A stretch of DNA of 64,000 nt from a virus: IMG/VR virus record IMGVR_UViG_3300035670_000049, positions 32,001 to 96,000 of that record, one strand, 5' to 3'. The notes below the pieces were generated by a model. That model saw only the letters and a program-made list of their open reading frames with translations, ran no database searches and was not told where the DNA came from. Shown here in pieces: positions 17,600 to 32,051 of the stretch (positions are counted from its first letter, which is position 1; each line of letters starts with the position of its first letter). Both the position numbers and the translations under genes were made by a program.

Positions 17600-18031
17600 T
17601 TACTCTTCTCCAATATTTGTTGCTGTCGGTATATAACCTTGCCAGTCTGGAAAGAATCCAAACTCGGGTAGACCGGGAAGATTGCCCCAATCCTGAATGG
17701 TATCAAACATATCAGATGGACTATCTCCCCAACTATCTCCACCTGTAATTAGTACATCATACTTACCGATATTAATCATATAACAATGACGATCATAGTT
17801 ACCATCAGCGACTGATCGAATATCATCGTGACAACAAAGCAAACGATGCTTCAATTCTTCAAGAGCCGAACAATCATCGTCATCACTATGAATCATTTGC
17901 ATATACTCAAACTCAGGATGATCTTTAAGTTGTTCCTCTGTTAGATTCTCAATGTATGCTCTTGCAGCATCCCAATCAGGACGCTTATCTTTAGCCCACC
18001 AAACAAAGTTTAGAAGTAGATCATTACCCAT
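17600..18031 (-). CDS. Hypothetical protein
   Basis: LITGGDSWGDSPS motif; coupled. Confidence 0.7.
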   Translation of the reverse strand: MGNDLLLNFVWWAKDKRPDWDAARAYIENLTEEQLKDHPEFEYMQMIHSDDDDCSALEELKHRLLCCHDDIRSVADGNYDRHCYMINIGKYDVLITGGDSWGDSPSDMFDTIQDWGNLPGLPEFGFFPDWQGYIPTATNIGEE

Positions 18032-18216
18032 TATGTTAGGACCCTCGCAACTACCTTATCATTACATAGAAGTCGCTTCTTATACCCATTACCTACATTT
18101 AGAGCATTGAAGTATAAAATAGCTTGGACTTTATTAGTAAATGACCATCGAGTTTTATATGCTGATTTATAACGTCCAATCTGAACTTTATATAAATCAT
18201 CCATAAACAACTTCAC
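18031..18216 (-). CDS. Hypothetical protein (likely start MDDLYK)
   Basis: Start overlaps the stop of the 18197-18250 mini-ORF. Confidence 0.65.
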   Translation of the reverse strand: MKLFMDDLYKVQIGRYKSAYKTRWSFTNKVQAILYFNALNVGNGYKKRLLCNDKVVARVLT

Positions 18217-18250
18217 CTAGCACAATCTTCTGAATGATTACATCTGCCAT
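18197..18250 (-). pseudogene. Second copy of the 3' end of the 19555-19974 gene, forming mini-ORF MADVIIQKIVLGEVVYG
   Basis: Encodes the same last 16 aa as the 19555-19974 product; RBS AGAAAGGA 8 nt upstream of ATG. Confidence 0.85.
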
Positions 18251-18321
18251 AGCCCATATCCTTTCTATATTGTAGATTATGATACCGGGGGATGGTCATA
18301 ATCTATTTAGGAGGTATTAAA

Positions 18322-19041
18322 ATGTTTAAATATTCAGGAAACAAACAAAGGTTATTGCATCTACTACGCCAACCACCTAAAGGTCCGATCATAGAGCCTT
18401 TTGCTGGAAGCGCAAGGTACAGTTTGAATTACGATTTAGATGCTATTTTATTTGAAAAAAACAAAGACGTATACGATTTATGGGACTGGTTAATAAACGA
18501 TGCTACTAAGAAAGATTTACTTGAATTAGAAAAAATGAAGCAACCGGAAAAGGTGGATATTCGATTGCTTAACCTTCCAAAACCGCAGGAAACTCTATTT
18601 AGGTTGACGTGCGCAAGCGTTTACGTAGGTCAGTTATCCTCATGGATTTCGTACCCTCAACATAAAGTAGATTTTTCTAGATTGATTAGTTATTTACCCC
18701 AAATAAAATATCGATTTACTTTAGGAGGCACAGATTACTTACAATCAGCAGGATTGCAAGGAACGTACTTTATTGATCCGCCTTATATGGGCACAAGTGG
18801 AAATTATATAGATGGAAGCAATAAAAAAGAATTAAATAGCGTAAACTTAAATACTTTTACAGAGTATATAAATAGTGTTGACTCTCCTATTATATTTACG
18901 TATGGCACGGATGCTCAGGAAGTTTTTCCGCAATATCAATGGGAATTAGTTTTGATGAGGCGCGTCCCTAAAATTAGAACCGGAGGTACTGCGAATAGGA
19001 TCGATTATGTCTTTTATAAGAATTTTTCTATACATGGTTAA
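18322..19041 (+). CDS. D12-class (Dam-like) N6-adenine DNA methyltransferase
   Basis: FKYSGNK, IEPFAGSA (motif I), FIDPPY (motif IV); RBS AGGAGG. Confidence 0.88.
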   Translation: MFKYSGNKQRLLHLLRQPPKGPIIEPFAGSARYSLNYDLDAILFEKNKDVYDLWDWLINDATKKDLLELEKMKQPEKVDIRLLNLPKPQETLFRLTCASVYVGQLSSWISYPQHKVDFSRLISYLPQIKYRFTLGGTDYLQSAGLQGTYFIDPPYMGTSGNYIDGSNKKELNSVNLNTFTEYINSVDSPIIFTYGTDAQEVFPQYQWELVLMRRVPKIRTGGTANRIDYVFYKNFSIHG

Positions 19042-19140
19042 ATCAGAAATTTCCTCAAAATCTTCGTCTGTTTCAATAATAAAGCAGCCGTCGATAGATG
19101 AAAATGTTTCTCCATCATTAAGAACAACGTATTGTTTCAT
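18946..19140 (-). CDS. 64-aa hypothetical protein inside the cassette
   Basis: RBS GAGGAG before ATG 19140; VVLNDGETFSSIDGC. Confidence 0.6.
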   Translation of the reverse strand: MKQYVVLNDGETFSSIDGCFIIETDEDFEEISDLTMYRKILIKDIIDPIRSTSGSNFRDAPHQN

Positions 19141-19161
19141 TTTACTCCTCGGAGGTAAATA

Positions 19162-19578
19162 ATGTCTAAAGAACGTCAACGCGAATGGTATTATGAGAAC
19201 CATGAAAGAGAGTTAGCCAAACGTAGAGCATATCAAGAGGCTAATCGAGAACGAGTACGCGAAATGAATAGAGATAATCATCGAAGGCACCAGCAAGAGG
19301 ACCCCGAAGGTTATAAACTTGTTAGGAGATTTCGTCAACTAAAGCATAAATATGGTATTACACAGCAACAATACGACGATATGTATAACTCTCAGCAAGG
19401 ATTGTGTGCAATATGTATACAGCCCTTTGATATTTTTGCCGTAGATCATAATCATATTACAGGTCGAATACGTGGATTACTGTGTAAATCATGTAATACC
19501 TTACTTGCTAATGCTAAAGAAGATTCATCGCTACTGCAAAGAGCAATTGACTATCTAGCCGTACACGACCTCACCTAG
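19162..19578 (+). CDS. Endonuclease VII-type (beta-beta-alpha-Me) HNH nuclease
   Basis: YGIT..QY..M...Q.GLCAIC...AVDHNHITGRIRGLLCKSCN..L.....LLQRAIDYL. Confidence 0.9.
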   Translation: MSKERQREWYYENHERELAKRRAYQEANRERVREMNRDNHRRHQQEDPEGYKLVRRFRQLKHKYGITQQQYDDMYNSQQGLCAICIQPFDIFAVDHNHITGRIRGLLCKSCNTLLANAKEDSSLLQRAIDYLAVHDLT

Positions 19579-19974
19579 AACTATTTTTTGGATTATAACG
19601 TCCGCTCCGATGGCATCGTAATCAATATCTTCTCTGATACCCTTGTTGTTGACAGTATATGAGAATAGATGGCCGTAGTTTTCTAGCGCCCAATCTGTAG
19701 CATCAACCAACTTCTGTAGCGTAATTGAAGTAAATGGCCGCTTCTCTTCTTCTGCTTGACCATCCTCATCATCACGCATCCAAATTAGAGGAGTATCAAG
19801 AGTTAGATCAGGATTGATTTTATCGGTATCGGGCTCTCCATCCTCATCACATACATACCACCAATACCACTTGTATCTTTCAATTTGCGCCCAAAATCCT
19901 CTAGCACTCCAATCCATACCATCACTGAGAATATTCAGCAATAGAGGTACGGGATAACGTCCAGCAATTTGCAT
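19555..19974 (-). CDS. Hypothetical phage protein (cassette target gene; C-terminus D.D...AD.IIQ....GEVVYG)
   Basis: Intact ORF whose last 16 codons are duplicated at 18200-18247. Confidence 0.8.
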   Translation of the reverse strand: MQIAGRYPVPLLLNILSDGMDWSARGFWAQIERYKWYWWYVCDEDGEPDTDKINPDLTLDTPLIWMRDDEDGQAEEEKRPFTSITLQKLVDATDWALENYGHLFSYTVNNKGIREDIDYDAIGADVIIQKIVLGEVVYG

Positions 19975-20204
19975 TAGGTTAGTTCCTTTACAGTAAATGC
20001 TGTATCTACAGCAAACTCGTTGGCAAATCCATCAGTAATTTCCTGCCATGCTTCTGCGGGCATATGCCCAATAGCATTAGCAATAGCATCTACTTCTGTA
20101 ATGCGCCCCTTTCGATACATTGGAGCAAAGCCAATTCTAGTATGCAGATTAATTGTAATTGTTACGTCGTAGTCTTTCTCTTCAAAATAAGACTTCTTTG
20201 CCAT
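19974..20204 (-). CDS. Hypothetical protein
   Basis: Coupled ORF. Confidence 0.6.
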   Translation of the reverse strand: MAKKSYFEEKDYDVTITINLHTRIGFAPMYRKGRITEVDAIANAIGHMPAEAWQEITDGFANEFAVDTAFTVKELT

Positions 20205-31852: not shown

Positions 31853-32051
31853 TTTAAGGACAATAATTGTGGAAGATGTAATAGAATTTACTATTCTTTC
31901 GAGAAAGGCACATAAAGCGAAGAAGGAACATATTTGTCACGCTTGTAAACAGCCTATTATGCCCGGAGAGAAGTACCTTAAAGAAGTAGCTATTATTGAT
32001 GGAGACTTTAAAGAAATTAAATCTCATAGGAGCGAACCTTATTTTGAGTAA
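31830..32051 (+). CDS. Small Zn-binding protein (true start ~31870)
   Basis: KAKKEHICHACKQPIMPGEKY. Confidence 0.6.
   Translation: MASPFYFFLRTIIVEDVIEFTILSRKAHKAKKEHICHACKQPIMPGEKYLKEVAIIDGDFKEIKSHRSEPYFE

Follow-up and report, generated by a model that had tools for sequence, protein, structure and literature searches.

How can a nuclease gene lodge in the last codons of a conserved phage gene and leave that gene whole? The question is raised by a locus in a 64,000-nucleotide stretch of viral DNA (positions 32,001 to 96,000 of the IMG/VR record IMGVR_UViG_3300035670_000049), referred to here in its full length as the window, in which the end of one gene occurs twice. This gene (the target gene, 19555-19974) lies on the minus strand, encodes 139 amino acids and terminates in ADVIIQKIVLGEVVYG followed by TAG (19555-19605). 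A second copy of the same 16 residues, followed by TGA, is located at 18197-18247 on the same strand and is preceded by an in-frame ATG (18248-18250). The two tails differ in 14 of 16 codons, each time only at the third base (14 of 48 nucleotides, nt), and the stop codon is changed as well. The unchanged codons, CTA and GGT, are the antisense of the last codon (ACC) and the stop (TAG) of a nuclease gene on the opposite strand (19573-19578). The distance between the copies is 1358 base pairs (bp), so that the insertion spans 18248-19605. Repetitive fibre proteins aside, this is the sole short-range peptide duplication in the genome that carries the window, a single contig of 120,336 bp. Matches to Pfam and phrog profiles revealed no integrase, recombinase or transposase domain in any open reading frame (ORF) of the 1358 bp. 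The initial annotation, made from the letters alone, had described both the recoded 16-residue duplication and the absence of an integrase or transposase between its copies, and we confirm both. The EndoVII-type nuclease and the Dam-like (D12) methyltransferase that it placed in the cassette are also real; a conserved small gene at 18946-19140 on the minus strand had been missed.

The target gene belongs to a family of 26 homologues found only in phages, in which the C-terminal 16 residues are the most conserved part. The model of its protein is confident (predicted local distance difference test, pLDDT, 94), with no Pfam match and no fold match in the PDB; the only profile match is a weak one to phrog_2355, and its Atlas neighbours are all hypothetical phage proteins. 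Three members of the family (P0009, P0011 and P0025 in alignment A1) have a mid-protein insertion of 50-60 residues with a C-x2-C motif. For the genomic context of the family we used the DNA of 16 loci (L001-L013 and L034-L036, several of which duplicate one another) and the gene tables of P0004, P0016, P0021 and P0023, which together give about 15 distinct contexts and 10 distinct tail DNAs. All of the approximately 15 contexts other than the window are uninterrupted and nuclease-free, and the window genome is the only occupied one. This is the distribution expected of a free-standing homing gene, sporadically present and with an uninterrupted site in relatives. In the empty contexts the next gene is on the same strand and mostly overlaps the target gene by 8 nt (TATGGnTAA), with its ATG inside TAT-GGN-stop. 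A complete relative of 119,870 bp (L002) shows the arrangement predicted by the initial annotation, the target gene running directly into a homologue of the gene MDDLYK..., which in the window is found at 18031-18204 (minus strand, 57 amino acids) and is the native downstream neighbour. The two MDDLYK proteins are 62% identical and the 8-nt overlap with the target gene is the same. No homologue of 18250-19554 was found at any relative locus examined.

Comparison with the empty alleles tells which of the two tails is native. The downstream copy is identical at 47 of 48 nt to L034, at 44 to L004 and at 43 to L002, as expected from the earlier suggestion that empty alleles would carry the version at 18197. 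The tail now ending the target gene matches the same three alleles at 32-35 of 48 nt, its nearest relative being L036 (38 of 48). Compared with the uninterrupted alleles, 11-14 of its 14-16 shared codons differ (79-93%), the background being 37-50% in the gene body and about 37-60% when uninterrupted tails are counted as well. The homology between the downstream copy and the genes of relatives begins at GCAGATG, and there is none further upstream. From these matches, and from the point where the homology starts, we consider it secure that the downstream copy is the native (N-type) tail, now displaced, and that the functional tail arrived with the insertion as a replacement (R-type) tail. The remnant (18197-18250, minus strand) consists of an ATG, 16 codons and TGA; within it, TATGGATGA holds the start of the MDDLYK gene, and GGTGAAG is its likely ribosome-binding site. 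The replacement tail (16 codons and TAG, with atypical codons) keeps the target gene whole and in frame, and the ATG of the next gene is absent from its sequence. The structural reading, an insertion with a replaced gene end and a displaced native end, is likewise secure from these alignments; the architecture proposed initially, an integrase-free insertion at the gene's 3' end which brings an in-frame replacement tail and displaces the native one, is upheld by the sequence and by the empty sites. Three additional runs of the study have contigs in which the occupied junction regions are identical letter for letter, which shows that the occupied form is not a chimera or an artefact of one assembly.

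The nuclease gene (19162-19578, plus strand, 138 amino acids) is free-standing and convergent with the target gene. Its product matches the Pfam family Endonuclease_7 (PF02945) with 80.1 bits (cut-off 23.6, E-value 1.2e-22) and phrog_2914, 'endonuclease VII', with an E-value of 8e-32, and also resembles the His-Me restriction enzyme Hpy99I. It aligns to residues 10-85 of T4 endonuclease VII (1e7d/1en7) with the CxxC, DHxH and CxxCN motifs kept (glCaiC, vDHnH and llCksCN), and the predicted nuclease gene is accordingly intact, with zinc and catalytic motifs. The similarity to T4 gp49 is not full-length: the alignment reaches residue 85 of 157, six residues short of the end of the query, which lacks the C-terminal part of gp49 and has a basic N-terminal extension of about 60 residues. 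The gene has its own GGAGG ribosome-binding site, and its last 24 nt overlap the replacement tail. Its nearest homologues are at most 53% identical and all lie in other contexts. The EndoVII family is sporadic at varying loci; the complete relative G001 has two copies elsewhere in its genome, and the complete relative G002 has none. On a 4.3-kb IMG/VR contig, three paralogues of this family stand within about 2.2 kb (L017:1891-4056).

The N-type alleles share an almost invariant block of about 50-60 nt at the DNA level, from ATTGATTATGATGC to GATTGTGCT (L034:1659-1730, L004:5355-5426 and L002:5499-5570), in genes whose proteins are just 51-77% identical. Right after the stop codon the DNA of the relatives is unrelated, and nearly every one encodes a different gene there. 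To judge from these comparisons, the block sits exactly at a mosaic boundary, which is a typical kind of homing target and fits the report that phage nuclease genes occupy boundaries of genetic exchange (PMC10448857). The window genome has no intact N-type block of 62 nt: the functional copy has 15 mismatches, and the remnant, which is without the left part of the block, has 16. The carrier's own target therefore differs from the uninterrupted one (14 of 48 nt in the tail, 15 of 62 in the block), as is expected of a genome that carries a homing gene.

On balance, the nuclease probably drove the insertion, as a free-standing homing endonuclease whose spread replaces the C-terminal end of the gene it enters. 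This is supported by the join within the conserved block, the intact nuclease motifs, the empty sites and the mitochondrial precedent described below. The 1358-bp insertion (18248-19605) consists of an in-frame tail, apparently from a diverged allele of the same gene, a gene for a putative homing-type nuclease and a passenger module of two genes. The cleavage specificity, the repair route and the present-day mobility we infer as follows. The nuclease would cut the N-type block of a co-infecting phage that lacks the nuclease, at or just upstream of the Gly/Ala junction, and the break would be repaired from the nuclease-carrying genome. The left end would recombine with the body of the donor gene, and synthesis would copy the donor tail and the cassette. 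In the founding event the right end may have been joined without homology just upstream of the tail of the recipient, leaving the 51-nt remnant. The functional copy would be protected by the 14 differences in 48 positions of its tail, and the remnant because its part of the conserved block is without the left half. The remnant may be kept, or may not yet have decayed, because it carries the ribosome-binding site and the ATG of the MDDLYK gene; once formed, it could give a right homology arm of 48 nt for further spread, together with the next gene where that is shared. The divergence of the tails would also remove a direct repeat through which the cassette could otherwise be deleted.

The other two genes of the insertion also occur together elsewhere. 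The methylase gene (18322-19041, plus strand, 239 amino acids) encodes a predicted D12-class N6-adenine DNA methyltransferase, with a match to PF02086 (26.4 bits, cut-off 22), PFAGSA and DPPY motifs in its translation and 1044 homologues, the best of which align over 98% of its length; profile, AdoMet motif, DPPY and full length all agree with this class. It is absent from the complete relatives G001 and G002. The small gene MKQYVV... (18946-19140, minus strand, 64 amino acids) is convergent with the methylase gene and overlaps its 3' end by 96 nt. This overlap had led us to consider the small antisense ORF spurious, a view rejected once its homologue was found in L039, a contig of a related phage. 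There, behind the closest homologue of the methylase (61% identical), lies a counterpart of the small gene, again convergent and overlapping, which argues that the small gene is real; in the part free of the methylase the two small genes are about 70% identical, with conservative changes. In L039 (positions 211-1065) the pair stands at a different locus and is nuclease-free, and the gene on its other side shares 80% identity with one that lies about 20 kb off in the window. The putative methylase and small genes (18322-19140) are thus a separate conserved two-gene module, and the methylase is likely a passenger. The cassette proposed by the initial annotation stands in so far as the methylase rides as likely cargo; the cassette is composite, since the module occurs without the nuclease in L039.

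The recoding of the replacement tail may have been selected or inherited. The initial annotation took it as a hint of selection and put the chance of such a difference at roughly 5%; we obtained 0.049 for at least 14 differences in 16 codons under uniform synonymous choice, and 0.006 with the codon usage of the genome. The codon log-likelihood of the replacement tail is in the lowest 0.07% of simulated tails and in the lowest 2.6% of real 16-codon windows; per codon it is -1.41, against -1.04 to -1.08 in the genome and the cassette genes. The G+C content at third codon positions (GC3) is 0.50 in the tail and 0.28-0.36 in the genome and the cassette genes. The nuclease, methylase and small genes all have host-like codon usage, and a foreign donor with a different codon usage was therefore rejected as a source of the whole cassette. 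One rival account holds that selection drove the replacement tail off the wild-type target at nearly every synonymous site, so that it escapes its own nuclease, repeat-mediated loss, or both. The value of 0.006 speaks for it, as do tail codons that are out of keeping with the genome and with the genes of the cassette itself, and seven central codons that all differ from the almost invariant N-type core. The empty allele of L036 weighs more heavily. Its protein is 71% identical to that of the target gene, and it shares GGAGCGGACGTTATA..CAA..GTGTACGG with the replacement tail. The two have six synonymous differences in 13, which is the background rate, and both stand at the same distance from the N-type cluster. 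They have five of the unusual codons in common, and once L036 is counted, natural alleles account for all but three codons of the replacement tail. The test was, moreover, chosen after the fact for a stretch of 16 codons, and among ordinary windows of that length 2.6% are equally atypical. An R-like tail at an empty site indicates that a natural diverged allele is a sufficient source of the replacement tail, and recoding by selection, in the form initially suggested, is not supported given the similar tail of L036 (38 of 48 nt); we consider such selection improbable. The simplest reading of the alignments is that there are two allele classes, the rarer of which came into the cassette from a donor lineage; a diverged donor allele appears to explain the recoding better than purpose-made recoding. 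The L036 allele (positions 517-568, an empty site with an R-type-like tail on a 1745-bp contig) could belong to the donor lineage, could be resistant, or could mark a site from which the nuclease has been lost. A natural 'home-and-rescue' drive would combine a nuclease at the boundary block, a rescue tail selected to be maximally unlike the target (which gives self-immunity and prevents loss through the repeat), a remnant used as right homology arm and arbitrary passenger genes ferried between mosaic phages; this fuller scheme is unlikely in our judgement.

A different account needs no action of the nuclease. Two diverged phages could have recombined once at the conserved boundary block, by homologous crossover at the left end and by illegitimate joining at the right, so that a moron cassette came in with the gene end of the donor; the EndoVII gene would be just one of the passengers. 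Such an event agrees with a tail block that is conserved in DNA exactly where the gene content of the relatives changes, with a gene body that itself looks mosaic, with a methylase and small-gene module that moves without a nuclease, with the R-like tail of the empty L036 allele and with a single occupied genome. It accounts less well for a join precisely inside the conserved block, beside an intact nuclease gene that ends within the replacement tail. Sporadic opposite-strand nuclease genes between conserved genes are, besides, the usual signature of homing genes, and mitochondrial elements of identical layout are driven by their endonucleases (PMC3630166). We hold the one-off event to be doubtful, with a real chance of being correct. 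Elements of the integrase type, such as e14 and phage 21, restore the 3' end of the gene in which they attach (icd) and have the same layout, a duplicated and diverged 3' gene end around inserted DNA; e14 was one of two analogies offered by the initial annotation. As the ORFs of the 1358 bp are without integrase, recombinase and transposase domains, and the host replicon is the genome of a lytic-type phage, an origin of this type is most improbable; the other analogy, to fungal mitochondrial elements, does share the layout. Several results weigh against an insertion driven by the nuclease. One occupied genome was found, and no close homologue of the nuclease was found in the same context. The search for EndoVII genes flanked by duplications of their targets, proposed at the outset as a check, gave no flanking peptide duplication at 15 distant EndoVII loci or at the two in G001. 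Phage genes of the EndoVII type may also serve roles other than homing. In the runs that contain the phage, neither a joint skipping the cassette nor an empty variant of the same phage was found, a negative that contig cover cannot turn into absence. Finally, given that the module occurs elsewhere without a nuclease, assembly of the insertion may have taken two or more steps.

The closest known counterparts of the insertion are the mORF hybrids of fungal mitochondria, described in atp6 of Allomyces macrogynus and in atp6, atp9, cox2 and nad3 of Glomus sp. (PMC3630166). These have a foreign in-frame C-terminus, an endonuclease ORF and, about 1 kb further downstream, the displaced native C-terminus, which matches close relatives; the inserted one is diverged, largely at synonymous positions, and clusters elsewhere (PMC3630166). 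In Allomyces the endonuclease has been shown to drive mobility (PMC3630166). The window locus likewise has an inserted in-frame C-terminus and a native one retained past the endonuclease ORF, and the native copy groups with relatives. It departs from the mORF pattern in the nuclease, which is not in phase with the gene on the same strand and instead lies convergently on the opposite strand, overlapping the new tail by 24 nt, and which is of the EndoVII/His-Me type rather than LAGLIDADG or GIY-YIG. The host here is a tailed phage instead of an organelle, the insertion carries the methylase and small-gene passenger module, and the remnant still serves the translation start of the next gene.

Among phages, the free-standing seg and mob genes of T4-like phages ('intronless homing') are similar in that a sporadic nuclease gene stands between conserved genes and flanking markers are co-converted; the target is thought to lie in the neighbouring conserved gene, and the carrier is protected by sequence differences. 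A review of T4 (PMC2988022) contains no word beginning with 'duplicat'. The seg and mob genes sit between genes and have no displaced gene end, and the nuclease activity in the window is a predicted one. T4 endonuclease VII (gp49), a Holliday-junction resolvase, shares the catalytic core; gp49 is a core gene, in contrast to the sporadic nuclease of the window. In T4, MobA and the bypass cassette of gene 60 place a homing-type nuclease inside an essential gene, and the additional sequence that comes with it preserves the function of the gene and spares the carrier from cleavage. Gene 60 is split and rescued by translational bypass, whereas the window gene is rescued by a replacement gene end. 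The engineered drive HomeR is said to follow a home-and-rescue design as well, with a nuclease element at an essential gene and a recoded, uncut rescue copy; it is synthetic, Cas9-guided and made for insects, and the resemblance is one of logic only, with no kinship. In the literature searched, coverage of which is incomplete and no proof of absence, we found no phage in which a homing nuclease is described next to a duplicated gene end.

With empty-site controls, the locus shows how a nuclease gene can be set into the final codons of a conserved phage gene that nevertheless stays whole, with passengers riding along. If the nuclease was the driving agent, a mechanism of fungal mitochondria extends to tailed phages, and homing genes are tied to the DNA blocks that are conserved where mosaic phage genomes change their gene content. 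The N-type and R-type versions of the block, about 70 bp, offer a concrete and testable substrate case for a homing nuclease of the EndoVII type. Displaced gene ends may also serve as a simple sequence signature of active or recent homing events in metagenomes.

The genome carrying the window is that of a lytic-type tailed phage and encodes a primase, a DnaB helicase, a class II ribonucleotide reductase and a GMP reductase. Near the tail duplication the minus strand carries nearly all genes. A search of 50,697 deposited phage genomes gave no match to the region or the target gene, either in DNA or in protein. Exact-pattern scans of IMG/VR gave zero matches for the replacement tail, the fully degenerate tail and the R-type pattern, and the N-type pattern returned just two contigs, both already known. 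A scan for promoters and terminators gave fewer sites than in shuffled sequences, and its result was not used. The metagenome runs that contain the phage come from subsurface and soil. In a freshwater metagenome from a different study, 151-nt contigs match window positions 19764-20049, which fall in the body of the target gene and in its upstream neighbour, with the tail outside their range; each has one mismatch, which indicates that a very close relative of the window phage exists elsewhere. The two ends of the window genome (G000, positions 1-127 and 120210-120336) repeat each other over about 127 bp, which is most readily explained by the overlap that assembly leaves in a sequence that is circular or circularly permuted.

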